29,535 nucleotides of DNA, taken from assembly GCA_017472375.1 (NCBI GenBank), contig JAFUQL010000091.1, positions 1 to 29,535 on the forward strand. Reading direction: 5' to 3'. Below are positions 502-23,347 of the stretch, in pieces; within the stretch, counting starts at the first letter, position 1, and each line of letters starts with the position of its first letter. Made by a program: the position numbers and the translations under genes. The notes beneath the pieces are model-generated. The model saw only the letters and a program-made list of their open reading frames with translations, was not told where the DNA came from and did not search any database. The stretch is from Oscillospiraceae bacterium. Its GTDB lineage: Bacteria > Bacillota > Clostridia > Oscillospirales > Ruminococcaceae.

Positions 502-1208
502 CAGCCGCCGCCTCCCACATAGTCGGTCAGGGCAGCCATGAAAGCATTCTTGTTGCGGCGGCTGATCTGCAGCTCCGCGCCAGCCACCACCGCCGTATCC
601 TTCTGCACCTTGGTAACGTACATCAGGTTGACCAGATACCAGTAGTTGCACCGCACGAAATGATAGGGCGCCAGTTCGGCCTCAGCGGCCTGCAGGGTGC
701 CCCGCACGGCAAATTCCCCCAGTTCGGTGTGGTAGCGCAGCACACCGTTCTGCACCTCCACATAGCGGATCTGCCGGGTCTCCAGCCGCACCGCACCGTC
801 GCTCAGGCGCAGCACCACCTGGCCGGAAGCCTGGCGCTGTACCATCTGCACGGCCTTCTCCAGCTTGGTGGAAAAGGTGAAGTAATTGATGGGCTTGAGG
901 ACATAGTCCAGCGCCCGCACCGAATAGCCCCGGATGGCATACTGGGCCAGATTGGTGATGAACACCAGCACCACCTCGCTGTCCCACGCGCGGATCTGCT
1001 CGGCGGCGTCCATGCCGTTGACCCCAGGCATCTCAATGTCCAGAAAGATGATGTCGTAGATGGGACGGTACCGGTCCAGGATCTCTGCACCGTCGCTGAA
1101 CAGGGACACCTGCAGCTCGGTGCCGTTCTCCTTCTCATAGCGCAGCAGGAAGTCGTGGATCTGCCCGCGCATCTCAGCGCTGTCCTCCACCACGGCGATG
1201 CGAAGCAT
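501..1208 (-). CDS. LytTR-family two-component response regulator (235 aa)
   Basis: Receiver motifs IAVVEDS, FLDIEMP, FITN, DYVLKP, plus a C-terminal LytTR domain (IRYVEV...FVRCNYWYLVNL...ISRRNK). Start set at MLRIAVV, 7 nt after GGAGG. Confidence 0.93.
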   Translation of the reverse strand: MLRIAVVEDSAEMRGQIHDFLLRYEKENGTELQVSLFSDGAEILDRYRPIYDIIFLDIEMPGVNGMDAAEQIRAWDSEVVLVFITNLAQYAIRGYSVRALDYVLKPINYFTFSTKLEKAVQMVQRQASGQVVLRLSDGAVRLETRQIRYVEVQNGVLRYHTELGEFAVRGTLQAAEAELAPYHFVRCNYWYLVNLMYVTKVQKDTAVVAGAELQISRRNKNAFMAALTDYVGGGG

Positions 1209-1238
1209 GGTCATCCCTCCCGTCGATTCGTTAACAAT

Positions 1239-1268
1239 ACTATAACATGATACCGTATATTTCATCAA
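1239..1268 (-). promoter_or_regulatory. Putative sigma-A promoter of the LytTR/kinase pair
   Basis: Minus strand TTGATG-18 nt-TATAGT with a TGn extended -10. Confidence 0.45.
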
Positions 1269-1326
1269 CCGGCGATGGGCATTCTGCCCGAAAGTGTCCA
1301 CCGCGCTGTGCCTTCGATACAAACAG

Positions 1327-1358
1327 CGATCCCCCGGGCCGTGCGGCCCGGGGGATCG
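1327..1358. terminator. GC-rich hairpin after the ROK gene, probable terminator
   Basis: Perfect inverted repeat CGATCCCCCGGGCCG-tg-CGGCCCGGGGGATCG. The long T-tract is on the plus side and the minus-side tract is weak. Confidence 0.6.
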
Positions 1359-1381
1359 TTTTCTTTTTTCAGGGAACTCGT

Positions 1382-2623
1382 TCAGTCTTCCGCCTGCTTC
1401 GGGGGCTCCGGCAGGCCGCCGGCGGCCAGCAGCAGCTCGTTGACCACCACGGCCAGCGGCCCGATGTGTCCGATGCTGTCGTTCAGATGCGACTTGCGGA
1501 TGTAGCACTCGTTGTAGGCAGGGTCATACTGGCGGCACACCTGCAAAAAGCGCTCCCAGACGTGGGGCAACTGGAACATATCTCCATAGACCACCACTGC
1601 ATCCGGCGCCAGGAAGGTCACCGAATGGCACAGGGTACAGGCCACCGATTCAATGACCTCGTCCATGGCCTGCCACATCCCGGCATCCTGCACCTGGCCC
1701 CACCAGCCGATGTTCCGGGCGCGGATCTCGCTCACATCCCCGGCCACCAGTTCATACAGGGCGGGCATGGTCTCAGGCGTACAGCCCGCGGCCACCCGCT
1801 CCGCAATGGCGTGCACCGAGGCGATGGTCTCCAGGCAGCCGTAGCGCCCGCAGCGGCAGCGCCGCCCGTCCTTGACCACCCGCACATGACCCAGCTCGCC
1901 CTCCTTGGACTTGTGGCTCTCATACACAGCGTTCTGGATGATCATGGCGGAGCCCACGCCGGGGCCCCACTTGAGGAACATCAGATTCTCCCGCTTGCGG
2001 CCCACGCCGTACACCAGCTCGGCCTCGGCAAACGCTTTGACGTTGTTTTCCACCACCATGGGGTACTTCAGGTACTTCTGCAGCTCGCCGACCACATCCA
2101 CCGGTCTCTCCCAGACACGGTAGGCAGACTGGCTGATGCCCCGCTTCCGGTCCACCGGGCCGGGCACCGACACGCCCACGCCCAGGATCTTCTCCCGGGG
2201 GATGCCCATCTCCCACATCAGCACCTTGCTCTCGTTGGCGATGGCCTTGAGGAACTCCTCCGGCTCGGCCTGCGGGTTGGTCTTGATGGTGCGCTCGGTG
2301 CGGTCGTCGCCCTTCAGGTCGCTCACCGACACCACCGTGGCGGTGGCCTCGATGCAGATGGACAGCACATAGCGGCAGGTGTAGTCGATGCCCACCAGGA
2401 TCTTTCTGCGCCCGGCGCGGCGACCCTCCTGCAATTCGCCCTTCTCCTGCAGGATGCCCGCAGCGATCAGCTCGGTGCAGATGAGGGTGACGGTGGCCGG
2501 GGTGAGGCCCAGCTTTTCAGCCAGATCCTTCCGGGACATGGCGCCCTGCTCGTTCAGCAGCCGCAGGATCGCACTGCGGTTGTTGTATTTTACATTTTCA
2601 AGATTGATGCCGGTATGTGCCAC
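1382..2623 (-). CDS. ROK-family transcriptional repressor (XylR/NagC-like), probable regulator of the SQ cluster
   Basis: N-terminal HTH (SRKDLAEKLGLTPATVTLICTEL), ROK motifs VENNVKAFAEAE and GPGVG, and the Zn motif GELGH...CRCGRYGCLE. Confidence 0.93.
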   Translation of the reverse strand: MAHTGINLENVKYNNRSAILRLLNEQGAMSRKDLAEKLGLTPATVTLICTELIAAGILQEKGELQEGRRAGRRKILVGIDYTCRYVLSICIEATATVVSVSDLKGDDRTERTIKTNPQAEPEEFLKAIANESKVLMWEMGIPREKILGVGVSVPGPVDRKRGISQSAYRVWERPVDVVGELQKYLKYPMVVENNVKAFAEAELVYGVGRKRENLMFLKWGPGVGSAMIIQNAVYESHKSKEGELGHVRVVKDGRRCRCGRYGCLETIASVHAIAERVAAGCTPETMPALYELVAGDVSEIRARNIGWWGQVQDAGMWQAMDEVIESVACTLCHSVTFLAPDAVVVYGDMFQLPHVWERFLQVCRQYDPAYNECYIRKSHLNDSIGHIGPLAVVVNELLLAAGGLPEPPKQAED

Positions 2624-2675
2624 TGCTTCGGGTCCTGTCCTTTCCGTACTCCGCGCGCCCTCCGCGCGGATCGAT

Positions 2676-2696
2676 TTGATTTATTGGTTTAAGTAT
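2676..2696. promoter_or_regulatory. Candidate ROK operator overlapping the -10 (autoregulation)
   Basis: TTGATTTATTGGTTTAAGTAT resembles the palindrome at 12506-12526. Confidence 0.45.
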
Positions 2697-2721
2697 ATTG
2701 GGCAAAGGCAGACAGTGTCAA
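2692..2721 (-). promoter_or_regulatory. Sigma-A promoter of the ROK gene
   Basis: Minus strand TTGACA (2721-2716), 18-nt spacer, TATACT (2697-2692). Confidence 0.65.
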
Positions 2722-2787
2722 GCGCTCCCACGCTTTATCATAGTGAATTCGCAAACTTCACATCTTTTAAAATCGTCTTTTGCACGA

Positions 2788-2826
2788 AAAAAAGCCGCAG
2801 AAACACGAAGTCTCTGCGGCTTTTTT
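2788..2826. terminator. Intrinsic (bidirectional-type) terminator ending the SQ catabolic operon
   Basis: AAAAAAGCCGCAGA-loop-TCTGCGGCTTTTTT with A/T tracts on both sides. Confidence 0.8.
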
Positions 2827-2889
2827 CAAACTTTGGGGAAAAATCCCGCTCACGCGGTCAGCATTTTGCCCGGAACGAAAATTCTGCGC

Positions 2890-4230
2890 TTAGTAGCGGC
2901 AGATCTCCATGCCCAGCATATTGCCCAGCTTCTCCAGCTCGTTGGCCACGTCGGCGTAGACCACCACGAAGTGGGGCTCCCAGCCGGCCTTGATGGTGCC
3001 GTAGACAACATCCTTGGCGGGGGCGTCGGTCTTGACCACGATGGAGGTGCCGTTGAACTGACGGGGCTTGTCCAGGGCAGCACCCTTGGCGATGAAGAAA
3101 CGGAAGCCGCCGTCGGGCTTGCGGCCCACACGGAAGACGGTCACGTTCTCGCAGGGCTCACAGCCGAAGTCCATCACGGGGCCGATCTTGCGGTTGGGAT
3201 GCACACCCACCTGAGCGCCGGTGTCCTTCCGGGCCAGGTTGCAGGCGGCCATGCCGCAGTGCCAGTAGGTGATGGTGCCTTCCTTCTCGTCCATGGACAC
3301 GGGGTCGCCGAAGAAGGTAGACTTGCCGCTCAGCTTCTGGCCGATGAACATGGACAGGGCGCCGTACACGTCAGCCTCGCAGCTGGCGGAGATGCCGTTC
3401 TTGTTCAGCAGGCTCAGAACAGTGCAGACGGGGGTGCCGAAGGACACGAAGAAGTCGGGCCAGCAGCGGCTGCTCAGGGCGCCGATGCCGTTCTCCGCCA
3501 CATAGGCCTTGTAGGCCTTGTACAGGCGGGCAAAGTCCACCACGTTCTTCTCGGGGGTCTGGTCCAGACCGCAGACGGTGTCGTTGGCCTCGGCCATCTC
3601 CTCGGCGCAGTCGGTGAACTCGTAGCCCTTGGCCTTCTCGATCAGCTCGCGGGCCTCGATGGCCTCCAGCGTGACACCGAAGGTGCTCATCAGTTCGGCG
3701 TCCAGCGCACGGCCGAAGCCGAAGCCCTGGGGGGTGTGGCCGATGGCGGCCATCTTCAGGCTCTTCAGCGCGACCATGGTCTCGGCGGCGCGGATGGCGG
3801 CGCCGATCTCGGCCTTCACCTCGGCCTCGCCGGGGGCGCCGAAGATGTACTCAAACTGGCCGTCCTTGCGGAAGGCATGGATGGCGTTGGCCGCGGAGTA
3901 AGCGCCGGTCAGGCTGTTCAGGCGCAGGCGGCCGCCGTCGATGACGGGCTCGCGCAGGGTCCACAGCACAACGGGGCAGTCGAAACGCTTCAGCACCTCG
4001 CTGGCATAGGCAGCGTTGGCGAAGGTCACGTTCTGCAGCACCACCAGATCAGGGTCGATGGTGTCCAGATAGGCGGCCAGCTCCTGCACGGTCAGCAGGA
4101 CCTTCTCGGGGTAGACGCAGGCACCGGACAGCTCGCTCAGCATCGCGACAGACTTGTCGAACTGATCCTGGGCGCTCTCCATGTGGTAAGTGCCTACGCC
4201 GATGGGAATGTAAGCAACCTGAAAGCCCAT
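2890..4230 (-). CDS. sftI: Sulfoquinovose isomerase (FucI/AraA-like fold; SqvD/SftI type)
   Basis: Motifs REP..GGRLRLNSLTG, CWPDFF, SCEAD, WHCG and GVHPNRK match my recollection of Bacillus SqvD, and the gene sits in the SQ cluster. Start set at ATG 4230 after AAGGTGA. Confidence 0.82.
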   Translation of the reverse strand: MGFQVAYIPIGVGTYHMESAQDQFDKSVAMLSELSGACVYPEKVLLTVQELAAYLDTIDPDLVVLQNVTFANAAYASEVLKRFDCPVVLWTLREPVIDGGRLRLNSLTGAYSAANAIHAFRKDGQFEYIFGAPGEAEVKAEIGAAIRAAETMVALKSLKMAAIGHTPQGFGFGRALDAELMSTFGVTLEAIEARELIEKAKGYEFTDCAEEMAEANDTVCGLDQTPEKNVVDFARLYKAYKAYVAENGIGALSSRCWPDFFVSFGTPVCTVLSLLNKNGISASCEADVYGALSMFIGQKLSGKSTFFGDPVSMDEKEGTITYWHCGMAACNLARKDTGAQVGVHPNRKIGPVMDFGCEPCENVTVFRVGRKPDGGFRFFIAKGAALDKPRQFNGTSIVVKTDAPAKDVVYGTIKAGWEPHFVVVYADVANELEKLGNMLGMEICRY

Positions 4231-4284
4231 AGTTATCACCTTTTCCTTGTCAGTTTTTTCAGTGGGGGAACGATCCGCAGCAGA

Positions 4285-5847
4285 TCAGCCCTCGGCGGCA
4301 GCGGCGTCGGCGGCGGCGTGCTCGGCAGCCATCTCCTTCTCCTGCTGGGCGTTCAGAGCCTCGATCTTCTTGTTCAGCTTCATCATGGAGACGACCAGAA
4401 CCACGGTGATGATCAGGATGACGGCAGAGATGGGACGGCGCACGAAGACGGTCACATCGCGGTCGTAGCTCATCATGGCGGTCACGAAGTTGGCCTCCAT
4501 GATGGACTCCAGGATCATGCCCAGCATCAGCGGGGTGTTGTCGATCTTCAGCAGGTTCAGCAGGTAGCTCAGCCACAGGATGACAACGGTCAGGATCAGC
4601 TCCTTGGTGTTGCCGGTGGCGGCATAAGCGCCGGCGAAGCAGAACATGATGATGCAGGGGGCCAGCAGGGTGTACTTCACCTGCACGATCTTGGCCACAG
4701 CGCGGGTCAGGACCTTACCGATGGGGTACAGCAGGATGTTGGCGATCAGACAGCCGATGATGATGGAGTAGGCCATGGGGCCCTGCTTGGTGAACATCGT
4801 GGGTCCGGGCTGGATGCCGTGCAGAATAAAGGCGCCCAGCAGCAGAGCGGTGACACCGTCACCGGGGATGCCCAGGGTCAGCAGGGGGATCATGGCAGAA
4901 CCGACCACGGCGTTGTTGGAGGACTCAGCCGCGGCGATGCCCTCCAGGCAGCCCTTGCCGAAGTTCTGGGGCTGCTTGGAGATGCGGCGGGCCTCGTTGT
5001 AGCACATGAACTGAGCCACACCGCCGCCGACGCCGGGCATGGCGCCGATGATGGAAGCGATGACCGAGGAGTACAGGGTGGCAGGCATGATGCTCTTGAT
5101 CTCCTTGCCGGTCAGACCCTCGTTGTCGATCTTGTTGGCGTCGTCCAGATGGCCGTCGGACAGCTTGAACTCACGCAGCTTGTCGGCCACCTGAGTCAGA
5201 GCGATCAGGGCGATCATGGCGGGCAGCATGTCGATGCCGTACTTCAGGATGTCCAGACCGAAGCCGTAACGGGTGACGCCGGTGACGGCGTCCATGCCGA
5301 TGCAGGCCATCAGCAGGCCCAGGCAGCCGGAGATGATGCCCTTGGCCAGGCTGTCACCGGACACGCCGGCGATCAGGCTGATGCCCAGGATGCCCATGGA
5401 GAAGTATTCGACGGAGGTGAAGCCGGCCACCAGCTTGGTGATGGGGGAAGCGCACAGCAGCAGCAGGATGGCAGAGAACAGACCGCCGAAGGTGGAGGCG
5501 AACAGAGAGGTATCCAGCGCCTTCTTGACCTTGCCCTTCTTGGCCAGAGGATAGCCGTCGAAGGTGGTGGCGATGGCGGAGTTGGTACCGGGGGTGTTCA
5601 GGGTGATGGCGCTGATGGAGCCGCCGTACATACCGCCAACGTAAACGGCCAGCAGCAGGATGATGGCGGTATCTGCGTTCTCAAAGGTGTAGGTCAGGGG
5701 CAGCATCAGGATGATGCCGAGGGTAACGCTCAGGCCGGGAATGCAGCCGATGACCATGCCGATCACCAGACCGATGAAGATGGTCAGGATGTTGCTGACG
5801 GTGAACACCATGCCGAGGGCCTGGGAAATCATCTGAAAATCAGTCAT
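4285..5847 (-). CDS. tctA: Tripartite tricarboxylate transporter large permease
   Basis: 520-aa polytopic protein with TctA motifs GMYGGSISAITLNTPG, AAESSNNA and PLLTLGIPG. Confidence 0.93.
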   Translation of the reverse strand: MTDFQMISQALGMVFTVSNILTIFIGLVIGMVIGCIPGLSVTLGIILMLPLTYTFENADTAIILLLAVYVGGMYGGSISAITLNTPGTNSAIATTFDGYPLAKKGKVKKALDTSLFASTFGGLFSAILLLLCASPITKLVAGFTSVEYFSMGILGISLIAGVSGDSLAKGIISGCLGLLMACIGMDAVTGVTRYGFGLDILKYGIDMLPAMIALIALTQVADKLREFKLSDGHLDDANKIDNEGLTGKEIKSIMPATLYSSVIASIIGAMPGVGGGVAQFMCYNEARRISKQPQNFGKGCLEGIAAAESSNNAVVGSAMIPLLTLGIPGDGVTALLLGAFILHGIQPGPTMFTKQGPMAYSIIIGCLIANILLYPIGKVLTRAVAKIVQVKYTLLAPCIIMFCFAGAYAATGNTKELILTVVILWLSYLLNLLKIDNTPLMLGMILESIMEANFVTAMMSYDRDVTVFVRRPISAVILIITVVLVVSMMKLNKKIEALNAQQEKEMAAEHAAADAAAAEG

Positions 5848-5853
5848 AATCCA

Positions 5854-6327
5854 TTAACCTCCCATAAAGAACGGCACGTCAGGCAGCGAGATGTAGAACA
5901 CATACTTGAACAGGTAGTAGATACCGATCGCAGCCGCAGCGGTAAAAATATAGATGCCAGGTTTGCGCTCGCCGCAGTACCACAGCACGATGGCGAAGAT
6001 GATGATGGAGGCCACCACGAAGCCCAGCATGATGATGCCGATGGCGTACAGAGTGATCAGGGTGATGATGAAAAGCATGGGCTTTTCCTTCTCCCAATCA
6101 AAAACGGTGATGTTCTCCTTCTTGAACACCAGGCTCTGAATGATCAGGATCGCAGAGCAGATCAGAATGCCGGTGATGAAGATGGTGGGCAGCAGACGGG
6201 GAGAGGGAGCGCCGGAATCATACGCAGGCAGACGGACCTGGCTCTCCATGGTGAAGAACATGAACAGAGCGAAGGCGCCCATGATGATGCCGGACCACAG
6301 GTAGGTCTTGATGTTGAATTTCTTCAC
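5854..6327 (-). CDS. tctB: Tripartite tricarboxylate transporter small permease
   Basis: 157 aa, about 4 TM segments, SPRLLP motif, C-terminal FKYVFYISLP. GTG start with RBS GAAAGGA, directly upstream of tctA. Confidence 0.88.
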   Translation of the reverse strand: MKKFNIKTYLWSGIIMGAFALFMFFTMESQVRLPAYDSGAPSPRLLPTIFITGILICSAILIIQSLVFKKENITVFDWEKEKPMLFIITLITLYAIGIIMLGFVVASIIIFAIVLWYCGERKPGIYIFTAAAAIGIYYLFKYVFYISLPDVPFFMGG

Positions 6328-6403
6328 GAGAAACTTCCTTTCCTGAATCTAGCAGTTCCTTCAAAATATTGCGGACATTTTGCATTTGCGCAAAATACGG
6401 CGA

Positions 6404-6446
6404 TAACGTGACCGGCGGGCCGAGGAACGACCCACCAGCCACGTTA
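6404..6446 (-). other. 19-bp RNA stem-loop in the tctC-tctB spacer
   Basis: Minus strand TAACGTGGCTGGTGGGTCG-ttcct-CGGCCCGCCGGTCACGTTA is fully paired, using 4 G-U wobbles that exist only on this strand. Confidence 0.65.
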
Positions 6447-6655
6447 CCACCTTATTGAGAGAGGAAACAGGCAATTTTATTGCGGAGGTACGCGGTTTCT
6501 GCCGGGCTGCCCCGGCGCCGCACCGCAGTGTGTGCCACAGAAGCCTTTGCCGCTTCGGATGCGCTCGAAGCGCCGCCGGCATCCTGCTGCACACATCCCG
6601 GTGAGGGCCGCAGGCAGCTTCGGCAGCAGCCGCCTATCCCCGGGAGCTTCCGCCC

Positions 6656-6683
6656 TGCCCGGCCGCATCACTGCGGCCGGGCA
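6656..6683. other. Perfect 12-bp hairpin downstream of tctC (mRNA stabiliser or attenuator)
   Basis: TGCCCGGCCGCA-tcac-TGCGGCCGGGCA, with no long U-tract. Confidence 0.6.
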
Positions 6684-6776
6684 TAACGGAGGGTCCCACT
6701 CGTCTGCCCATGTGACCAACAGGTCTCTCAGGCACCGCGCACGGTCAGGTCAGACGAGCCACGCGGAAGGAATTGG

Positions 6777-7820
6777 TTAGGCAGACAGGTTGTCGAACGC
6801 GGCAACAGCCTTGGCACAAGCCTCGTCGTAGAAGGCGACAGCCTCATCGCCGTACAGCTCGAAGCGGTTCAGCATGACGCTCTCGATCCACTCGTGGTAC
6901 TCAGCGTCGGCCCAGACAGCCTTGGTGACCTCGGTCATGGCGTCGATGAAAGCCTGATCAGCACCGGCACGGACAGCCAGAGAGCCGCCGGCAGGCAGGA
7001 TGCAGCTGGAGAAGTCGATGCTGGGATCCAGCTCGGGAGCCTTGGCGTCGCCAGCAACGGTGGGAACGGTGATGGGGCCCTCAGGAGTGACGAAGCCCTC
7101 GAAAGCGCGGTCGTTGAAAGCCAGGATGGGGATCAGAGTGCCAGCCTCGACCTCCTCCATGGCGGCCTGGGTGGTGCCCATGAAGACGTCGACCTCGCCG
7201 TTGACCAGGCCCTGCTTCTGAGCAGCGCCGCCGTCATAAGGCACGACCATAACGTTGCCGCCCATCAGAGCGCACAGGGAGCCCAGCTCCAGGTGGCAGT
7301 CAGACAGGGGGTTGCCGCCGGACATCTTCAGGGTGCCGGCCTTGGCCTTCTCCAGGATGGACTCCAGGGTCTGGTCGGGGGTGGTGTACAGGATCCAGGT
7401 ACGGTCGTCCACGGTGCCGATGGGGTACATGGCGTCGCGGTCGAACTCGACGATCTCGGTGCCGTACTCCTTGCCCAGGTCATGGCGGTAGCACAGGCCG
7501 TAGCCGAACACCAGCAGCTCCTTGGCGGAAGCATCCAGATCGGCGAAGTAGGTAGCGGCAGCGAAGCCGTCACCGCCGGTCATGTTCTCGACGATGAAGT
7601 TGTACTCGGGGTACAGACGGTTGGCCACGACCGCATACTTGCGGGCGATCAGGTCGGCGGTGCCGCCGACGCCGTAGCCGCAGATGATCTTGATGGTCTC
7701 GCCGTTGGGGTTGCCGCCGGTCTCGCCGCCAGCAGCCTCAGAAGAAGCAGCGCCGCCGCCACAGGCGACCAGGGACAGGGCCAGCACCAGAGCCAGCACA
7801 AGTGCGATGAGCTTTTTCAT
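6777..7820 (-). CDS. tctC: Tripartite tricarboxylate transporter substrate-binding lipoprotein (TctC/Bug family)
   Basis: Lipobox LVAC, and Bug-like motifs GYGVGGTADLIAR, VENMTGGDG and VPYDGGA...GEVD. Confidence 0.88.
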   Translation of the reverse strand: MKKLIALVLALVLALSLVACGGGAASSEAAGGETGGNPNGETIKIICGYGVGGTADLIARKYAVVANRLYPEYNFIVENMTGGDGFAAATYFADLDASAKELLVFGYGLCYRHDLGKEYGTEIVEFDRDAMYPIGTVDDRTWILYTTPDQTLESILEKAKAGTLKMSGGNPLSDCHLELGSLCALMGGNVMVVPYDGGAAQKQGLVNGEVDVFMGTTQAAMEEVEAGTLIPILAFNDRAFEGFVTPEGPITVPTVAGDAKAPELDPSIDFSSCILPAGGSLAVRAGADQAFIDAMTEVTKAVWADAEYHEWIESVMLNRFELYGDEAVAFYDEACAKAVAAFDNLSA

Positions 7821-7894
7821 TGTTTGATCCTCCGTTTTTTTGTTTTATTTCGACAGCAGAGGGTGCTCAGCCCTCTGATAACGAACAAAGGGGA

Positions 7895-9904
7895 TTATTT
7901 GCCGTGCTTGGCACGGATCTGCTCCATCAGGCCGGCCACCTTGCTGCCCTTCTTGTAGAAGACGGGGACAGAACCGATGGGGGCGGGGACGGTGCAGGTG
8001 CCGTGGCCGTACTCAGCGCCGGACCACAGATGGATCCAGCCGTCGCTGGGCAGGTAGACCTCACGGTCGGTCTGGGCTTCCTGCCAGACAGGGGCCACCA
8101 GAACGTCCTCACCCAGCAGGTACTCGAACTGCTCGGTGTAGCTGCGCTCGTCGGCCTCGTTGTGCAGGAACAGGGGACGCTGGACGGGGATGCCGCGGGC
8201 GGCGTTCTCGGCCACCAGCTCCTTCAGGTAGGGCATCAGCATCACATGGATGTCCACCAAGCGGGCGGTCTCTGCCATGCAGTCCGCGTCGTCGTAGTAC
8301 TGGAAGTTGGTGTCAGGGCGGTTGCCCTCGTGAGTGCGCATCACCGGGGTGAAGGCAGCCATCTCGGTCCACCGCAGGAACACTTCCTTGGTGCGCAGGT
8401 TGTCGAACAGCGAGGTGTAGCCGCCGATGTCGCTGTGGTTCAGGCCGCAGCCGATCATGCCGGCGCTCAGGGTGCCGCAGATGGTGGTGCACAGGCCGTC
8501 GTGACGGCTCAGGTCCACAGACTGGTCGCCGTTCCACAGCAGGGTGCAGTACTTCTGGCTGCCGGTGGCGCCGGCGCGCATGAAGTAGACCACATCGCCC
8601 AGCTTGCCGCTCTCGTTCACCGCGTCGTAGTTGCACTTGGCCCACAGGGCAGGCCAGTGGTTGTGCTCGATCATGGCGGAGACGCCGTTGTGCAGCACGA
8701 TGTCATCGGTGGGCAGGTACTCACCGAAGTCGGCCATCCAGCCGTCAATGCCGATGTCGATGCTGTGCTTCTTGATGACCTCGTCCTTGAACCACTCATA
8801 GGCCTCGGGCTTGGTGAAGTCGATGACACCGCAGTAGAACTCGCCGAAGTCCACCAGGTAGATGCTGCCGTCCGCCTTCTTGGCGAAGACGTCCTTCTCA
8901 AGGCCCTCCTGGTAGAGCTTGCCGCCCTGCACCAGGTAGGGATTGATGTAGCCCATGAAGCGGATGCCCCGGTCGTGCAGCTTCTGGATCTCACCGGGCA
9001 GGTCGGGATACATCTCCTCGTGGAAGTGCCAGTCCCACTGCAGGCGCTTGCCGAAGCTGGTCACGCGCTTGCCGCACCAGTCCTGGCACCACACGGCGGC
9101 CACCTTGATGCCGTTCTCGATGGACTTGTCCACCAGGCCGAAGGAGCGCTCGTTGCCGCCCTGCACGCCCACGATCAGACCGTTGTAGATCCAGTCGGGC
9201 AGTTCGGGCTGGCGGCCCAGATGGGCGGTCAGCTTCTCCAGCAGTTCCACGAAGGTGTCCGCGCCTTCGATGCGCACACTGGCGGGCACAGCCCACATCT
9301 GCAGCTCATGGAAGGTCTCGTCGCGGAAATCGAAGTCCGCGTAGGCGGTGCAGTCCACATCCACATAGTAGCGCTTGCTGCTCACGAAGGTGGGCTGGGG
9401 GTAGTTGGTGTTGTAGTAGTCGCCGCCGGCGCCGCCGTTTTCCACGTCGGAACGCCAGGTGACGTAGGTGGTCTTGTCGCGGCCCACGCCGGGCTCGCCG
9501 GTCCACAGGGGGAAGTGCCGGCCGCGCAGATCGAAGTAGGACATCTGCTCGCCGCAGCCGTAGCAGTGCTCGTCCTTGTCGGCGCGCACGCGCAGCCAGA
9601 AGCGGTTGATCTGCTCGTCCTTCTGAACAAAGTTCAGGGTGACGCACTCGCCGTCCTGCTTCACGGCCATGGTCAGGGCATCGCCCATCTCCACGGTCAG
9701 GCCCTCGGCGGTCTCCTCGATGGAGGTGATCTCCACCGGGCGGCGCTCGATGACGTAGTCCTCGATCTTGAAGTTGCCGCGGTACATATCCACGGTCTCT
9801 TTGCCGTAGCCCACATAGATCATGGGGTTGGCTTTGGTATGCTCCAGAATGGTGTGCTCACCCTTTTTCAGGACAAACTCCATCCCGTTGCGGATGATCT
9901 GCAT
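7895..9904 (-). CDS. yihQ: Sulfoquinovosidase, GH31 (YihQ/SftG type), 669 aa, no signal peptide
   Basis: Catalytic WMADFGE and WNGDQ, plus the SQase sulfonate-pocket signature QDWCGKRVTSFGKRLQWDW and HSDIGGY. RBS GAGGAGG precedes ATG 9904. Confidence 0.92.
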   Translation of the reverse strand: MQIIRNGMEFVLKKGEHTILEHTKANPMIYVGYGKETVDMYRGNFKIEDYVIERRPVEITSIEETAEGLTVEMGDALTMAVKQDGECVTLNFVQKDEQINRFWLRVRADKDEHCYGCGEQMSYFDLRGRHFPLWTGEPGVGRDKTTYVTWRSDVENGGAGGDYYNTNYPQPTFVSSKRYYVDVDCTAYADFDFRDETFHELQMWAVPASVRIEGADTFVELLEKLTAHLGRQPELPDWIYNGLIVGVQGGNERSFGLVDKSIENGIKVAAVWCQDWCGKRVTSFGKRLQWDWHFHEEMYPDLPGEIQKLHDRGIRFMGYINPYLVQGGKLYQEGLEKDVFAKKADGSIYLVDFGEFYCGVIDFTKPEAYEWFKDEVIKKHSIDIGIDGWMADFGEYLPTDDIVLHNGVSAMIEHNHWPALWAKCNYDAVNESGKLGDVVYFMRAGATGSQKYCTLLWNGDQSVDLSRHDGLCTTICGTLSAGMIGCGLNHSDIGGYTSLFDNLRTKEVFLRWTEMAAFTPVMRTHEGNRPDTNFQYYDDADCMAETARLVDIHVMLMPYLKELVAENAARGIPVQRPLFLHNEADERSYTEQFEYLLGEDVLVAPVWQEAQTDREVYLPSDGWIHLWSGAEYGHGTCTVPAPIGSVPVFYKKGSKVAGLMEQIRAKHGK

Positions 9905-9939
9905 TGCAGTGCCCTCCTCAGAGTTTGATTTGGGGATGC

Positions 9940-10605
9940 TCAGTACTTCAGCTCCTTGTTCTCGCCCAGCAGGCCGGGGAACGCGCCCTGTTTGATCAGG
10001 GGCTCGCGCTCGGGGTGGGCGATGACCCACTTGTTGCGCTGCAGCAGGAGCTTTGCCTCGCCCTCGGGGATGTCCTCACCGTGGGGCCAGGGGGTGTTGG
10101 TGCCGCGGGGCAGCACCACGATGCCCTTGAAGCCCTCGTCGCACACGCGGCAGGGGGACAGGTGCAGGGTGGTCTGGTACATCTCGATGGCGGTGCCCTT
10201 CTTCACGAAGAAGGGCCGGGCGTCCTCCACCCGGTAGGTGCCGTCCTTGATGAGCCAGCTGTGGCCCAGCACCAGCATGAAGTCGGTGACAGCGATGTTG
10301 ATCTCGCTGCCCTTGTGGTACTCGAAGCCGTTGTAGGTGGTGTTGCGGCCGTTGCAGTAGCCGATCTGGATGGGCATGCCGCCGTACAGAACGTTCTGCA
10401 TCCGCTCGAACACGGGGTCGGCCTCCATCTCGGGGACGGAGGGGACGTAGACGTTGCCGTTCTCGGGGATAGAGGTGTTCTGCTCCATGTGGGCGATCAG
10501 ACCGGAGAAATCGTACCCGGTGACCACCCGGCCGTAGGGAGCGAACGCCTCATCGAACACCGACAGCACCTTCACGTCGTTGACCTGATTCAGACGCTCG
10601 ATCAT
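9940..10605 (-). CDS. sftX: DUF4867 cupin-like protein (SftX type), function unknown
   Basis: Motifs FAPYGRVV, QIGYCNGRN, EYHKGSEIN, LHLSPC and LLQRNKWVIAHPE, in the position expected for sulfo-TAL clusters. Start set at ATG 10605 after GAGGTG. Confidence 0.8.
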   Translation of the reverse strand: MIERLNQVNDVKVLSVFDEAFAPYGRVVTGYDFSGLIAHMEQNTSIPENGNVYVPSVPEMEADPVFERMQNVLYGGMPIQIGYCNGRNTTYNGFEYHKGSEINIAVTDFMLVLGHSWLIKDGTYRVEDARPFFVKKGTAIEMYQTTLHLSPCRVCDEGFKGIVVLPRGTNTPWPHGEDIPEGEAKLLLQRNKWVIAHPEREPLIKQGAFPGLLGENKELKY

Positions 10606-10617
10606 GCCGTTCACCTC

Positions 10618-11478
10618 TTACTTCTGGTCACGGACGACCTTGTAGGTGGCGCAGAAGTCCTCTTTGCCGTAGCCGGCAGCCAGGGCATCCTGGTAGACGC
10701 GCTGCACGTTGGCCTCACCGGGCATGCTCACGCCCATCTCGGCGGCCAGGCTCATGCAGATGTTGATGTCCTTGGCCATGTTCTCGATGGAGAAGGCAGT
10801 GGTCCAGTCCTCGGCGGCGATGGGGGCGTTCTTGGTGTCCAGATAGAAGCACTGGCCGCCGCCGTAGCTGATGGCGGTGGCGAAGGTCTTGGGATCGATG
10901 CCGAACTTGGAGGCCAGCACCAGGTTCTCGTTGACGCCGTTCTGGATCTGGCCGACCATGGCGTTGTGGCAGATCTTCATGACCAGGCCCTTGCCGTTGT
11001 CGCCCATGCGGATGACGTTGTTGCCCATGTACAGCAGGATGGGACGCATGGCCTCGTAAACGGCCTCGTCGCCGCCCACATAGATGCCCAGAACGCCGGC
11101 GATGGCGGCGGGCTTGGACTTCACGACGGGAGCATCGATGAACTGAGCGCCGGTGGCCTTGACCATCTTGCTGATCTCAACGGAAACGCTGGGATCGATG
11201 GTGCTCATGTCGATGCAGGTCTTGCCCTCGCCCAGCACGGGCAGGATCTCCTTGTACACGGACATGGAGTGCTCGCTCTTCGGGACCATGGAGATGATGA
11301 CGTCGGAAGCCTTGGCCAGCTCCACAGAGCTCTCGCAGCCCACGGCGCCCTTGCTCACCAGCAGGTCGATCTTCTCCTTCACGAAGTCAAAGACATAGAC
11401 GGTGTCGTCATGCTTCTTGACGATGTTCTCGCTCATGGACTCGCCCATGATGCCCAGACCGATAAAACCGATTTTCAT
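10618..11478 (-). CDS. sftR: Beta-hydroxyacid dehydrogenase family; probable 3-sulfolactaldehyde reductase (DHPS-forming)
   Basis: IGFIGLGIMG Rossmann motif, catalytic KICHN, substrate loop DAPVVKS instead of the generic DAPVSGG, and cluster context. Confidence 0.8.
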   Translation of the reverse strand: MKIGFIGLGIMGESMSENIVKKHDDTVYVFDFVKEKIDLLVSKGAVGCESSVELAKASDVIISMVPKSEHSMSVYKEILPVLGEGKTCIDMSTIDPSVSVEISKMVKATGAQFIDAPVVKSKPAAIAGVLGIYVGGDEAVYEAMRPILLYMGNNVIRMGDNGKGLVMKICHNAMVGQIQNGVNENLVLASKFGIDPKTFATAISYGGGQCFYLDTKNAPIAAEDWTTAFSIENMAKDINICMSLAAEMGVSMPGEANVQRVYQDALAAGYGKEDFCATYKVVRDQK

Positions 11479-11519
11479 CTTGCGTACTTCCTTTCTGTGC
11501 TGCGGTCAAGCAGGGGTGC

Positions 11520-12206
11520 TTACTCGGTGGCGGTGTTGTCCCAGGCGTTGATGAAGGTCTTCAGACCCTGATCGGTGTAGGCATGCTTGATGCAATCCTG
11601 GTACACAGCCAGACCGGTGGTGACGATGTCGGCGCCGGCAACAGCGCAGTCCACGATCTGCTTGGGAGTACGGACAGCGGCGCAGATGATCTCAGTCTTG
11701 CCGTAGAAGCCGTAGTTCTTGTAGATGTCAACGATGTTCTGGATGTAGGTCTTGCAGTCCTCGCCGTTGGCCTCCTTCCAGCCGATGAAGGGGGACACGA
11801 ACAGGGAGCCGTTCTTGGCGGGCAGGATAGCCTGAGCGGGGCTGAAGATCAGGGTGACGTTGGTGCGGATGCCCATGGCCTCCAGCTTGCGGGCGGCGGT
11901 GACACCGGCCTCGGTGCAGGGGATCTTGATGACGAAGTTGGGGCTGATGGGGGCGATCTCCTGAGCCATGGCGACCATCTCATCGGCGTCGTCCAGATGG
12001 GGGTTCAGCTCGACGGACACGGGGAACTTCTCGTAGCCCTCCAGGCCCTCCTCCTTGATCCAGTTGGCGATGTCGGTGATGGCAGTCTTGAAGGGCTTGC
12101 CGCTCACCATGATGTGGCGGGGGTTGGTGGTGACGCCGTCGATGCCGAAGGTCTCGTAAGCGTACTTGATCTCGTCCAGCTTAGCGCTATCCAGGAAAAA
12201 TTTCAT
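11520..12206 (-). CDS. sftT: 6-deoxy-6-sulfofructose transaldolase (SftT/SqvA type), 228 aa
   Basis: TAL/FSA fold with Schiff-base IKIP. TTNPRH (Arg), SPFIGWKE (Trp) and AAVR match the sulfonate-binding residues I recall for Bacillus sulfofructose transaldolase. RBS GAGGAGG. Confidence 0.9.
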   Translation of the reverse strand: MKFFLDSAKLDEIKYAYETFGIDGVTTNPRHIMVSGKPFKTAITDIANWIKEEGLEGYEKFPVSVELNPHLDDADEMVAMAQEIAPISPNFVIKIPCTEAGVTAARKLEAMGIRTNVTLIFSPAQAILPAKNGSLFVSPFIGWKEANGEDCKTYIQNIVDIYKNYGFYGKTEIICAAVRTPKQIVDCAVAGADIVTTGLAVYQDCIKHAYTDQGLKTFINAWDNTATE

Positions 12207-12318
12207 TGGTGTTTCCTCCTCGATTTCTTCTCTCAACAGGTTTGTAGGCGAACGTTTGCGGATGATCATGGGTGGATGTTCGGACGTGTTCGGGGGAATC
12301 CAGGCCGCGCGGCACTTC

Positions 12319-12344
12319 ATTGTTAATTTTATAAATTAATCAAT
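12319..12344. promoter_or_regulatory. AT-rich palindrome in the operon leader, candidate second operator
   Basis: ATTG-TTAATTT-tat-AAATTAA-t-CAAT shares the TTAATCAA half-site with 12506-12526. Confidence 0.45.
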
Positions 12345-12442
12345 AAGATCCGACGTCTTACCCTTGTGTCTTGCGGTATGATATTTTGTCCCTCACCCAC
12401 AAGTTTCTGGGTTGTTCCTGTATTTCCGCCTCTTGCGTGACA

Positions 12443-12471
12443 ATAATATAGCCAAAATGCACATGTGTCAA
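12443..12471 (-). promoter_or_regulatory. Sigma-A promoter of the sulfo-TAL operon
   Basis: Minus strand TTGACA-17 nt-TATTAT. Confidence 0.75.
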
Positions 12472-12505
12472 CAGTTTTTTGTCGTCCAACGCGCTTTTTG
12501 GTTAT

Positions 12506-12526
12506 TTGCTTAAATATTTTAATCAA
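12506..12526. promoter_or_regulatory. 21-bp palindrome, candidate ROK operator
   Basis: TTG-C-TTAAA-tat-TTTAA-T-CAA. Confidence 0.55.
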
Positions 12527-12683
12527 CTTTTGGCATTCTGCTCACAAGTTTCCATTTGTTTCGTAGTGTCCACCTTGAGGCAGGGCACCACTTTCGCCCA
12601 GCGCGCCCGTTTCCCGATCCGCCCCGCTCCGTCGGATCGGAAAGCCCATTTATGGACTTTGGTCTCACCTCTATGGAGCACCG

Positions 12684-12724
12684 AAAAAAGGACGCCCCGA
12701 CTTTTTCAGTCGGAACGTCCTTTT
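12684..12724 (-). terminator. Intrinsic terminator of the AI-2E gene
   Basis: Minus strand AAAAGGACG-TT-CCGACT-loop-AGTCGG-GG-CGTCCTTTTTT, with G-U pairs on the minus strand. Confidence 0.75.
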
Positions 12725-12749
12725 GTGCAAATGCGTTTGTATGATGGCT

Positions 12750-13919
12750 TCAGCTGTCCGCTGCCGGTGCATCGGTCTCGGCTGCAGCCAGCGCCTGCTC
12801 ATGCTCGTGCAGATCCCGGCGGAGCATCTGGTAGATCGCCGCCGCGATGGGCACACCCAGCAGCATGCCGGCCACGCCCATCAGGCCGCCGCCGATGGTC
12901 ACCGCAGCCAGCACCCACACGCCGGGCAGGCCGATGGAGCTGCCCACCACGCGGGGATAGATCAGGTTGCCCTCCAGCTGCTGCAGCACCAGGATGAACA
13001 CAATGAACCACACCGCCTGAATGGGGGAGACGGTGAGGATCATAAAGGCACCCACCGCCGCGCCGATGTAGGCGCCCGCCACCGGGATGAGGGCGGTGAA
13101 GCCCACCAGCGTGCCCACCATGGCCGCATAGGGGAAGCGCAGCAGGGTCATGCCCGCCATACACAGCAGGCCCAGCACCACCGCTTCCATGCACTGGCCC
13201 ACGATGAACTTGCGGAAGCACTCGTTCAGGGTGCGCAGCACATAGCGCAGCCGCCCCGCCCACAGTTCGGGCAGGAAGCGCCGGGTCAGCCGGTCGAACT
13301 GGTTCAGCAGGGTCTCCTTGCCCACCAGCAGGTACAGCGCAAAGATGAGCCCGATGACCACGGTGGTCACCACCCCCGCTGCGGAGGACACCGCGCTGAC
13401 CGCCACCTGGGCCGCACCGCCCACGCCCTCCAGCAGGGTCTTGGCCAGTTCGGTCAGCCGCTGCTGCCAGTCCACCTTGGCCAGCGAGGTGGCCAGCTCC
13501 TCGGCAGACAGGGCCTCAGCCACGCCGCTCTCCTGCAGCCACAGGCCCAGATCCTTCAGCGCAAGGGGGATCTCGGCCATCAGCAGACGGATGGCCGCCA
13601 TCAGCTCGGGGACCACCAGCAGCACCACCAGCAGGATCACCGCCACAAAACTGAGCAGCGCCGCCACGATGCACACCGCCCGCCGCAGTTTCTGCGCCGT
13701 CCGCCCCTTGAAGGGGTAGTGCCGCTCATAAAAGCTCATCAGGATGTTCAGCAGGTAGGCCATGACCACGCCCACGATCAGCGCCTCGGCCGAAGCCAGC
13801 GCCGCCCCGCCCAGCGTGATCAGCCCATCCCAGTAGTGAATGGCCAGATACAGCAAAAATACGCTCACCCCGACCCGGATGCAGCTCTTCCATTCGATCT
13901 TCATTTGATATGGATCCAT
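12750..13919 (-). CDS. AI-2E family transporter (PerM-like)
   Basis: Polytopic protein with LIPVAGAYIG and QQLEGNLIYPRVVGSSIGLP...GMLLGVP motifs. Start uncertain (13919 or 13904). Confidence 0.9.
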   Translation of the reverse strand: MDPYQMKIEWKSCIRVGVSVFLLYLAIHYWDGLITLGGAALASAEALIVGVVMAYLLNILMSFYERHYPFKGRTAQKLRRAVCIVAALLSFVAVILLVVLLVVPELMAAIRLLMAEIPLALKDLGLWLQESGVAEALSAEELATSLAKVDWQQRLTELAKTLLEGVGGAAQVAVSAVSSAAGVVTTVVIGLIFALYLLVGKETLLNQFDRLTRRFLPELWAGRLRYVLRTLNECFRKFIVGQCMEAVVLGLLCMAGMTLLRFPYAAMVGTLVGFTALIPVAGAYIGAAVGAFMILTVSPIQAVWFIVFILVLQQLEGNLIYPRVVGSSIGLPGVWVLAAVTIGGGLMGVAGMLLGVPIAAAIYQMLRRDLHEHEQALAAAETDAPAADS

Positions 13920-14042
13920 CCTGCCCGCAGCCGCAGGCCTCATAAAATCGCTCTCACAGTGTCATTATACCGCCGCAGCCACCGCGTAAAAACCAACAAA
14001 CCCTGTGCAGTGTGAAACAACGCCGCAGCCGGGGCCGGCCGC

Positions 14043-15326
14043 TCACTTTTTGCGGCCGGTGCGGGGCTTTGCCCGCTGGGGCGGCTGCCCCTGCGCTGCG
14101 TGCCGGCCCGCCAGCAGGCCGGTGCCGAAGGCCCAGTGCAGATTGTACCCGCCGCAGCTTCCTGCGCAGTCCAGCGTTTCGCCCACAAAGTACAGGCCGG
14201 GGCAGCCCCGCAGCCCGAAGCTCTCCGGCTCCACCTCGCTGAGCGCAATGCCGCCGCCGGTGGTCTGCGCCTGGTTCCAGCCCACCGGCTGCAGGCCGGT
14301 GAACCGCCAGTCGGTGAGGCCCCGGGCAAGCCGCAGCCAGTCTTCGCCGCGCAGCTCTGCCGCCGGGCGGGTGTCCGCGCCGAGCCCGCAGGCCTTCCAC
14401 ACCGCCAGACCCACCCGACGGTTCACAAGGCCGGTCGTGTAGCCGGCGGCGGTGACCCCGGGCAGGGCCTTCGCCCGGGCCGCAAGGCGCGCGGCCAGCG
14501 CATCCGTCTCCTCCCCGGGGAACAAGTTCAGCGAGATCTGCCGCTCCACCGGCTTCCCGCCGGGGCGCAGCAGGCCGGACAGCTGCATCACCGCGATGCC
14601 CGACAGCCCGTATTCGGTGAACTGCACCTCACCCCGCTCGGTGCGCAGGGGGCGGCCGTCCGCCAGCAGGGTCGCATCACCCTTGACCCGGATGCCCGCC
14701 AGACCCTGCACCTGCTTTTTCTCGCACTGCAGCGGCACCAGGCAGGGGTATAGGGGCTCGGTGCGCAGGCCGCACTGCCGGGCCAATTCAGGGCCAAACC
14801 CGTCGGTGCCAAACTGGGGCCCGGCGCTGCCGCCCAGGGCACAGATGACCGCATCCGCCCGCAGGCTCTCACCCCCGGCCAGCCGCACTGTGTAGCCCTC
14901 CCGCTGCTGGCGCAGCTCCTGCACGGCACAGTCGGTGCGCACCTCCACGCCGGTGCGCTCCAGCCAGTCCAGCAGCAGATTCAGCACGTCCGCTGCCTGG
15001 TTGGAGTAGGGGTAGATGCGCCCCGCCTCGTCCGGCTCCCGGCACCACAGCCCGTGGGCGGCGAACCAGCCCAACGGGTCGGCCTGTTCCACCGCCGCAA
15101 GGCAGGCGGCCAGCGCCTTCCGGTCGGCGGAGAAATACCAGCCCGCATCCCGGTGGGCGTTGGACAGATTGCACCGCCCGTTGCCGGTGGCAAGCAGCTT
15201 CTTGCCCACCCGGGCGTTGCGCTCCAGCAAGGTCACCCGGGTGCCCGCCGGGGCAGTCTCCGCCGCTGCGACGGCCGCCGCGATGCCCGCTGCGCCGCCG
15301 CCCAGAATGAGGATGTGTCTTGCCAT
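14043..15326 (-). CDS. HI0933/YhiN-family FAD-dependent oxidoreductase
   Basis: ILGGGAAG, GKKLLATGNGRCNLSN, TTGGGI and GETLDCAGSCGGYNLHWAFGTG motifs. Confidence 0.92.
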   Translation of the reverse strand: MARHILILGGGAAGIAAAVAAAETAPAGTRVTLLERNARVGKKLLATGNGRCNLSNAHRDAGWYFSADRKALAACLAAVEQADPLGWFAAHGLWCREPDEAGRIYPYSNQAADVLNLLLDWLERTGVEVRTDCAVQELRQQREGYTVRLAGGESLRADAVICALGGSAGPQFGTDGFGPELARQCGLRTEPLYPCLVPLQCEKKQVQGLAGIRVKGDATLLADGRPLRTERGEVQFTEYGLSGIAVMQLSGLLRPGGKPVERQISLNLFPGEETDALAARLAARAKALPGVTAAGYTTGLVNRRVGLAVWKACGLGADTRPAAELRGEDWLRLARGLTDWRFTGLQPVGWNQAQTTGGGIALSEVEPESFGLRGCPGLYFVGETLDCAGSCGGYNLHWAFGTGLLAGRHAAQGQPPQRAKPRTGRKK

Positions 15327-15365
15327 GATGCGCCCGCCTTCCCTGGTCGTTTCTTTAATATAGGT

Positions 15366-15395
15366 AGTATAGCACAGGAACGCCGGACGGCTCAA
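15366..15395 (-). promoter_or_regulatory. Putative sigma-A promoter of the HI0933 gene
   Basis: Minus strand TTGAGC-18 nt-TATACT with an extended -10 TG. Confidence 0.45.
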
Positions 15396-15438
15396 TGGTG
15401 GACTCTGCCGCCTTTTTCGCCCGCCGCCCCAGACATAC

Positions 15439-15469
15439 AAAAGCCCCGGCTCCATCGCGAAGCCGGGGC
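15439..15469 (-). terminator. Intrinsic terminator after pepD
   Basis: GCCCCGGCT/AGCCGGGGC stem followed by TTTT on the minus strand. Confidence 0.7.
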
Positions 15470-15476
15470 AGGGAAG

Positions 15477-16913: not shown

Positions 16914-16939
16914 TGTTGTCGCTCCTTTTCATAAACTGC

Positions 16940-17640: not shown

Positions 17641-17657
17641 TTGCTGCCATTCTCCTT

Positions 17658-23338: not shown

Positions 23339-23347
23339 GATTCCTCC

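Follow-up and report, generated by a model that had tools for sequence, protein, structure and literature searches.

A predicted sulfoquinovose transaldolase operon with a TctCBA-type transporter on a native island of an uncultured high-GC gut Clostridia bacterium

Introduction

Can an uncultured, GC-rich bacterium of the Clostridia ferment sulfoquinovose (SQ), and if so by which route and to which product? The question is raised by nine co-oriented genes on contig JAFUQL010000091.1 (C299) of assembly GCA_017472375.1, an Oscillospiraceae bacterium placed by GTDB in the Ruminococcaceae. The whole contig of 29,535 nucleotides is referred to here as the window. It belongs to a fragmented metagenome-assembled genome (MAG) of 1.87 Mb in 359 contigs, 66.8% complete with 3.3% contamination and a GC content of 63.4%. 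The identity of the product bears on the wider gut community: 2,3-dihydroxypropane-1-sulfonate (DHPS) from fermenters feeds sulfite-respiring bacteria, which produce H2S.

A preliminary description of the window proposed a complete transaldolase-type (sulfo-TAL) pathway at 2890-12206, predicted to release DHPS. All genes lie where it placed them, on the minus strand, in agreement with open reading frames and domain matches. That span begins at the stop of the isomerase gene, ends at the start of the transaldolase gene and so leaves out regulator and promoter; the full functional unit also takes in the ROK gene (1382-2623) and a promoter/operator region that reaches ~12530. With a probability of roughly 0.85, the cluster represents a sulfo-TAL (sulfofructose transaldolase, sulfo-SFT) operon with predicted uptake by TctCBA, a predicted route through SftG, SftI, SftT and SftR to DHPS, probable ROK control, and the status of a native ~11.5-kb island. 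It should allow this uncultured animal-gut bacterium to ferment SQ by the transaldolase route already described, and it adds an uncultured high-GC Clostridia lineage to the likely SQ fermenters.

In the proposed pathway, a TctC-type lipoprotein together with TctBA would import SQ or sulfoquinovosyl-glycerol (SQGro), and the GH31 enzyme SftG would free SQ from its glycosides. SftI would convert SQ to 6-deoxy-6-sulfofructose (SF). SftT, through a Schiff base on a conserved lysine, would transfer the C3 dihydroxyacetone unit of SF to glyceraldehyde-3-phosphate, giving fructose-6-phosphate and releasing 3-sulfolactaldehyde (SLA), which SftR would reduce with NADH to DHPS; the DHPS would leave by an exporter encoded outside the cluster. 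SftX, a DUF4867 protein, would be a conserved accessory cupin, and a NagC/Mlc-like ROK repressor with its own promoter would probably act on the operon through a 21-bp palindrome.

Core enzymes of the cluster

The genes are arranged in the order sftT, sftR, sftX, sftG, tctC, tctB, tctA, sftI and ROK on the minus strand (window 1382-12206, Table 1). They are not chance reading frames of GC-rich DNA, because E-values of the window proteins against Pfam, NCBIfam and the Protein Data Bank range from 1e-43 to 0. Genes called independently on metagenome contigs that are nearly identical to the window yield the same products (228, 286, 221, 669 and 347 residues). The motifs cited in the preliminary description are all present, and comparison with characterised SftT/SqvA, SftI, SftR and YihQ pairs each enzyme with a characterised or physiologically validated counterpart, as expected of a sulfo-TAL cluster with a reductase and DHPS as predicted product.

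SftT aligns end to end with the Bacillus megaterium SF transaldolase (BmSF-TAL, 8bc3; 290 bits, E 1e-85) and carries GVTTNPRH, GWKE and the conserved lysine of VIKIP; a passage of PMC12890257 citing Snow 2023 assigns the Schiff base of BmSF-TAL to Lys89. When SftT is aligned with nine further transaldolases from sft clusters and with seven housekeeping ones from relatives, only the sft-cluster proteins show TTNP(R/K)H and GWKE; the housekeeping enzymes have TTNPSL and the phosphate-binding motif GR(L/I)DD. SftT combines the TalC/FSA fold and Schiff-base lysine of SqvA/SftT proteins with sulfonate-adapted motifs that replace the phosphate-binding ones. Transaldolase matches in 40 relatives, ranging from the same genus to the same order, number 18 and are 36-44% identical to SftT; an SF-type transaldolase is present in none of the 40.

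SftG is 68% identical to Eubacterium rectale SftG (6pnr, 1106 bits), for which cleavage of p-nitrophenyl sulfoquinovoside has been shown by assay (PMC11968277). It scores 965 bits against PRK10426, the NCBIfam model of YihQ (cut-off 553), and contains WCQDW...GKRLQW and DIGGY, which match the QDW..KR..W and DIGGY signatures cited earlier. Alignment with YihQ of Escherichia coli MG1655 and E. rectale-type SftG reveals conservation of Q262, Q288, R301, W304, D405, D472, Y508 and H537 (E. coli numbering). The sulfonate pocket of sulfoquinovosidases (SQases), Arg301-Trp304-Tyr508 (PMC8006165), is intact, as are the nucleophile Asp405 and the acid/base Asp472. The characterised E. rectale cluster is represented in these comparisons by locus L009, because the L009 GH31 is essentially identical to 6pnr (1446 bits over 666 residues).

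SftI matches NF048012, the NCBIfam model for sulfoquinovose isomerase, over positions 3-442 of 443 with 423 bits (E 1e-126; cut-off 700), identifying it as an SQ isomerase of the SftI/SqvD type. E. rectale-type SftI scores 417 bits, so the sub-cut-off score is a trait of the clostridial branch. Identity to SftI of other sft clusters is 65-77%, and the isomerase, reductase and DUF4867 proteins are 65-73% identical to their E. rectale-type counterparts. SftX matches the B. megaterium DUF4867 structure 9gyy with 222 bits; a published study found the DUF4867 protein to have no detectable activity (PMC11968277). Homology to assayed enzymes strongly supports the predicted hydrolysis, isomerisation and transaldolase cleavage with glyceraldehyde-3-phosphate as acceptor.

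These families also act on other sugars, and the likeness to sft clusters could reflect generic chemistry of a FucI-like isomerase, a DUF4867 protein and a transaldolase in a cluster that degrades a non-sulfonated sugar. Most DUF4867 genes lie in non-sulfonate aldose or ketose clusters (PMC11968277), and the window isomerase, reductase and transaldolase all fall under the curated NCBIfam cut-offs. Yet E. rectale-type isomerase, transaldolase and reductase score equally below them, the SQase triad is intact, SF transaldolase motifs stand in place of GR(L/I)DD, and the cluster is nested within sft clusters in a tree. A non-sulfonated substrate is thereby highly improbable. The same scores make it fair to expect, as the preliminary description did, that the pathway would escape automated annotation: the GH31 protein matches an NCBIfam "alpha-glucosidase" model and the other three enzymes fail the curated thresholds. 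Annotation pipelines still under-call the clostridial branch of SftI, SftT and SftR.

Reductase and predicted end product

The last enzymatic step determines which sulfonate is formed. SftR shares 73% identity with its E. rectale-type counterpart and 31% with E. coli YihU, and it conserves the catalytic Lys171. It is classed as SftR-type, not YihU-type, because it reaches 152 bits against NF012005 (cut-off 348) and does not retain the sulfonate pocket of YihU, which consists of Asn174 and Ser178 together with the main-chain amide of Arg123 (PMC8006165). The preliminary description held that all four enzymes carry sulfonate-specific signatures; this is supported for the GH31 enzyme and the transaldolase and is not proven for the reductase. 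Its DAPVVKS motif is identical in window and E. rectale-type SftR and, as the YihU pocket is not conserved, serves as a clade marker and not as a proven sulfonate motif.

The cluster has a predicted SLA reductase of the DHPS branch and no SLA dehydrogenase; genes for a kinase/aldolase pair, a transketolase or an aldehyde dehydrogenase were not found in the cluster. E. rectale and C. symbiosum, both of which carry SftR, excrete DHPS (PMC7491151). DHPS is the predicted end product, supported by orthology of SftR to that of these DHPS excreters, the lack of a cluster aldehyde dehydrogenase and the logic of a fermentative pathway.

Transport of substrate and product

Predicted uptake is where the window departs from the E. 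rectale-type cluster. TctA, TctB and a TctC/Bug-type binding protein are encoded together, as in tripartite tricarboxylate transporters (TTT), in which TctA is a subunit with 12 transmembrane segments. The TctC-like protein has a signal peptide and a cysteine lipobox, matches the TTT terephthalate-binding protein 8hkb (E 2e-12) and other solved TTT solute-binding proteins (SBPs; E up to 1e-5), and shares their GGTAD loop. TctCBA replaces the SSF symporter of the E. rectale-type cluster. We infer uptake of SQ or SQGro by TctCBA from its position, its co-inheritance in at least 11 genomes and the reciprocal replacement of the SSF symporter. A search for TTT or Tct together with sulfoquinovose returned nothing relevant in searchable literature text, from which figures and some supplements are excluded. 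On balance, TctCBA seems a rather likely SQ/SQGro importer. No earlier TTT would then have a sulfonated carbohydrate as substrate, and the receptor would be a lipoprotein of the Gram-positive kind; the transporter would mark a whole clade of sft clusters from rumen and gut Clostridia in which it replaces SSF, with TauE lost in the sub-clade of the window. Given that loss, DHPS would have to exit by another route. Transport is the mechanistic gap of interest in this system, with a TTT as sulfosugar importer and a missing DHPS exporter.

Several observations weigh against the assignment as a whole. First, the TctC-like protein reaches 22 bits against Pfam TctC, below the cut-off, and the literature searched contains no TTT system with a demonstrated sulfosugar substrate. 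Second, tblastn detects no cluster-type TauE exporter (SftE) in the window or the assembly, and the cluster encodes no dedicated sulfonate exporter. Third, the YihU pocket residues are replaced in both window and E. rectale-type SftR (Asn174 by His, Ser178 by Val, Arg123 by Lys), and no in vitro characterisation of a clostridial SftR was found in the literature examined. Fourth, the host assembly is 67% complete, leaving room for downstream DHPS-converting enzymes elsewhere. Finally, of six metagenome contigs nearly identical to the window, two have an interrupted GH31 frame.

The second point qualifies the earlier description of a "complete" pathway: the four core enzymes are present, but the TauE exporter of the E. 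rectale-type cluster is missing. This does not speak against membership in the sulfo-TAL group, which has been defined in print by the four core genes alone (PMC8397734). The sole TauE-type gene found in the assembly is a generic Pfam TauE match on contig C282. A gene for an AI-2E family transporter (12750-13943) adjoins the island but is assigned to its outside, because a same-genus genome without the island (G001) also has it.

The interrupted GH31 frames occur at L038:4127-6139 and L039:4125-6137, in loci ~99.3% identical to the window, where in-frame stops or small indels split the gene into two called genes; the window, L037 and L040 have it intact. The interruption may reflect pseudogenisation in some strains or an error of assembly.

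The same upper pathway could also operate without release of DHPS, if genes elsewhere process DHPS to 3-hydroxypropanesulfonate (HpfG/HpfD-type), desulfonate it, or oxidise SLA to sulfolactate. Extended sulfo-TAL pathways of this kind have been published (PMC11489063), and the incomplete assembly, the lack of a dedicated DHPS exporter and a glycyl radical enzyme (GRE) fragment on the 1.7-kb contig C101 are compatible with one here. However, the GRE fragment is distant from any solved GRE (best match 66 bits, of the choline lyase/pyruvate formate-lyase type), no Hpf-type or aldehyde dehydrogenase gene is found in or beside the island, and the closest relatives of the cluster likewise lack such genes within 10 kb. 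Further conversion is therefore unlikely, and release of DHPS is the preferred prediction. The GRE fragment itself (G000, C101:2-1336, locus L077) is not close to solved sulfonate-cleaving enzymes.

Regulatory elements

The ROK regulator has the N-terminal winged helix-turn-helix (HTH_24/MarR, residues 17-58) fused to a ROK sugar-binding domain (89-393) that is typical of ROK repressors. It matches NagC and Mlc models over nearly their full length, below the equivalog cut-offs, and an orthologue occupies the same position in E. rectale-type and TTT-type clusters. Of all sigma-70-like matches in the region, the best two directly precede sftT and the ROK gene. Pairs of half-sites spaced as in the window palindrome, 13 bp from start to start, recur upstream of sftT in loci L057, L009, L036, L001, L010, L005, L029 and L021, across genera and including the E. 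rectale-type locus. The ROK repressor probably controls the operon through this conserved palindrome at 12506-12526.

Table 1. Genes and putative regulatory features of the sft island (positions refer to the window; aa, amino acids)
Feature	Position	Strand	Remarks
ROK-family regulator, N-terminal winged helix-turn-helix, NagC/Mlc-like, 413 aa	1382-2623	-	Pfam ROK and HTH_24/MarR
TTGATTTA half-site	2676-2683		just downstream of the regulator promoter
Sigma-70-like promoter of the regulator gene, TTGACA-18-TATACT	2692-2721	-	11/12 match
Terminator hairpin 3' of sftI, 17-nt arms, T-run	2788-2826	-	separates sftI from the regulator gene
sftI/sqvD, sulfoquinovose-sulfofructose isomerase, FucI-like, 449 aa	2890-4239	-	NCBIfam NF048012
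TctA, large membrane subunit, 520 aa	4285-5847	-	Pfam TctA, 447 bits, full length
TctB, small membrane subunit, 157 aa	5854-6327	-	Pfam TctB, 62 bits
Hairpin in the tctC-tctB spacer, 20 pairs, T-rich tail	6402-6448	-	possible partial terminator that may favour SBP expression
TctC-like TTT solute-binding lipoprotein, 347 aa	6777-7820	-	predicted SQ/SQGro receptor; ligand suggested by context
sftG/yihQ, GH31 sulfoquinovosidase, 669 aa	7895-9904	-	6pnr match, NCBIfam PRK10426
sftX/sqvB, DUF4867 cupin metalloprotein, 221-224 aa	9940-10614	-	Pfam DUF4867, 255 bits
sftR, predicted NADH-dependent 3-sulfolactaldehyde reductase, beta-hydroxyacid dehydrogenase fold, 286 aa	10618-11478	-	Pfam NAD_binding_2 and NAD_binding_11
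sftT/sqvA, 6-deoxy-6-sulfofructose transaldolase, 228 aa	11520-12206	-	full-length match to BmSF-TAL 8bc3
Sigma-70-like promoter of the operon, TTGACA-17-TATTAT	12443-12471	-	11/12 match, followed by a ~230-nt 5' leader
21-bp palindrome TTGATTAA-N5-TTAAGCAA	12506-12526	-	upstream of the sftT promoter; candidate ROK operator, protein binding presumed
Island extent relative to the same-genus genome, ~11.5 kb	1301-12780	.	flanks adjacent in G001

The spacer between tctC and tctB (window 6328-6776) is 449 bp of non-coding, GC-rich and unusually long DNA with a second hairpin at 6642-6697; the homologous spacer in a further genome of the family (G293) is ~170 bp. An origin as a TauE remnant was considered and rejected, as the spacer has no similarity to TauE. 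No copies of it occur elsewhere in the genome or in the compared loci, and an Rfam search of the window gave no match.

Genomic island

Comparison with the same-genus genome G001 reveals that the cluster is a discrete block, missing at the syntenic site there. On G001 contig C66, sequences corresponding to window 1-1300 (84% nucleotide identity) and 12781-19744 (88%) are 103 bp apart, so that the block from ROK to sftT (~1301-12780) is an insertion or deletion between congeners. The cluster has a GC content of 61.6% and a GC content at third codon positions (GC3) of 0.80-0.94, equal to those of its flanks and of the genome (63.4% GC); Lachnospiraceae sft loci are 35-53% GC. Recent transfer from a low-GC donor was rejected on synteny and on the native GC and GC3 of the cluster.

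The cluster is also rare within the family. An SQase-like GH31 gene is present in three of 300 other family genomes searched, and of these three only G293 (58.5% GC, TauE present) has the same cluster, with 73-86% identity to the window for the enzymes, TctC and TctA and ~53% for TctB and ROK. Because of this rarity, and because the G293 cluster is not sister to that of the window, gain of the island is more parsimonious than repeated loss. No direct repeats, tRNA, integrase or mobility genes were found at its borders. The cluster shows the pathway moving as a discrete, strain-variable island.

In a fragmented MAG with 3.3% contamination, and with all close homologues but one in Lachnospiraceae-type genomes, it might be supposed that the contig is mis-binned and that the island derives from a Lachnospiraceae organism. 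Three lines of evidence contradict this. First, both island flanks lie on one contig of a same-genus genome at 84-88% nucleotide identity. Second, GC and GC3 of the cluster match the flanks and the high-GC genome, and not the Lachnospiraceae loci. Third, the contig recurs with the same flank in six metagenome assemblies at 99.1-99.9% identity. Mis-binning is scarcely credible, and the island is best regarded as native to the high-GC genome. The contig sequence is present in animal gut metagenome runs of one study, and no RNA run is listed as containing it. The assembly lacks rpoB; RpoB of a same-genus genome shares 72.6% identity with an Oscillospiraceae MAG, 71.0% with a bin labelled Butyricicoccaceae and 68.9% with Ruminiclostridium, values that support class Clostridia without separating its orders or families.

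Two further blocks of the window are missing at the syntenic position in G001: 19745-21167, with a gene for an atypical Glu/Leu/Phe/Val-type dehydrogenase, and 22242-29493, a ~7-kb multi-gene operon for hydrolase-like proteins. A LysR gene between them is 90% identical in G001. With three blocks missing from G001, the contig is a mosaic in which a conserved backbone carries three accessory insertions.

Relation to known sulfoglycolysis clusters

Is the arrangement itself new? A GH31 scan of species-representative genomes gave 36 loci, onto all of which the nine window proteins were mapped. The exact order of the window, including TctC-TctB-TctA and ROK, is found in 10 of the 36: an Agathobacter MAG (L001), a MAG labelled [Eubacterium] saphenum (L002), [Clostridium] clostridioforme AGR2157 (L004), Pseudobutyrivibrio ruminis (L005, L010), Pseudobutyrivibrio sp. 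YE44 (L029), Oribacterium sp. (L012) and Lachnospiraceae MAGs L013, L016 and L021. The truncated L003 follows the window order as far as its sequence extends, and Epulopiscium L011 has TctCBA in a different position. The suggestion that a gene arrangement with TTT and ROK might be unreported therefore does not hold, since the identical order exists in at least ten other public genomes and ROK is already part of the E. rectale-type cluster. As for the host lineage, publications already describe the SFT pathway and report it from Lachnospiraceae and Ruminococcaceae (PMC7491151, PMC8397734); what the window contributes is an additional high-GC lineage of the Clostridia.

A tree of five concatenated enzymes, covering eleven TTT-type forms (L002 and L003 were left out), places all TTT-type clusters in one clade with a support of 1.0. 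The cluster of the window belongs to this TTT-transporter clade, whose other members are mostly from rumen and gut Lachnospiraceae. Within it, the window falls into a sub-group without TauE, together with the Agathobacter MAG, Pseudobutyrivibrio and L021 (support 0.81), and the TauE-less forms of the tree constitute one clade.

Several side observations accompany the scan. TauE directly follows sftG in the TTT-type loci L002, L004, L011, L012, L013, L016 and L057; it is missing from the window, L001, L003, L005, L010, L021 and L029. Loci L006, L007, L008, L026, L032 and L033 (and L030) hold SSF-type sft clusters that hardly differ from one another. Their "cleanbin" MAGs carry the labels Bacteroidaceae, Butyricicoccaceae, Paludibacteraceae, Phascolarctobacterium and Muribaculaceae, which look unreliable unless the contig is promiscuously binned. 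In L058 (G190:C7, same family as the window), a different SQase-like GH31 gene (50% identity) lies beside genes for a DUF4867 protein (39%), a FucI-like isomerase (26%) and ROK, with no SF transaldolase. This locus may stand for a different type of sulfoglycolysis, or for an orphan cluster that acts on a sugar.

Among known systems, the closest is that of E. rectale (Agathobacter rectalis; EUBREC_2585-2596; PMC7491151, PMC8397734, PMC11968277), which shares the same enzymes in the same relative order at 65-80% amino acid identity, a reductase in place of a dehydrogenase, and a ROK/winged-helix regulator at the 3' end. A palindrome of the TTGATTAA-N5-TTAATCAA type also precedes sftT in the E. 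rectale-type locus. The order in L009 is SftT-SftR-SftX-SSF symporter-SftG-TauE-SftI-ROK, which fits the published numbering (SftX, EUBREC_2594; SftG, EUBREC_2592; PMC11968277). In L009, the SSF symporter lies between sftX and sftG, and TauE separates sftG from sftI; in the window, sftG is followed by TctC-TctB-TctA, and TauE is missing. The other TTT-type clusters are identical to it in order, including TctCBA and ROK, and 70-87% identical in the enzymes and TctA; the window differs from the Lachnospiraceae TTT-type hosts in its 63% GC and its family, and from G293 and AGR2157 in that these keep TauE between sftG and tctC.

Also comparable are the in vitro reconstituted sulfo-TAL systems of Bacillus aryabhattai SOS1 (sftATXGIFDE) and Priestia (Bacillus) megaterium DSM 1804 (sqv), which have in common with the window an SF transaldolase, a DUF4867 protein, an SftI-type isomerase (NF048012) and GH31 SQase homologues. 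The Bacillus clusters (PMC7491151) use a dehydrogenase that converts SLA to sulfolactate, an MFS-type importer and a GntR regulator; in contrast, the window has a reductase, a TTT and ROK. The E. coli yih genes (YihQ, YihS, YihV, YihT, YihU) of the sulfoglycolytic Embden-Meyerhof-Parnas (sulfo-EMP) pathway resemble the cluster in an SQase of 52% identity with the same sulfonate pocket, and in DHPS as the predicted end product of a reductase with the beta-hydroxyacid dehydrogenase fold. Unlike the yih system, the window has no SF kinase or SF phosphate aldolase, its isomerase is FucI-like and not of the YihS family, and its reductase is 31% identical to YihU without Asn174 and Ser178. The cluster is an ordinary further case of a published pathway, with three features of its own: TctCBA instead of SSF, no cluster TauE, and a native island of ~11.5 kb. 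Its interest lies in a TTT that probably imports a sulfosugar, in the lack of a cluster exporter and in the cleanly polymorphic island, and the remainder repeats biology already published for these systems.

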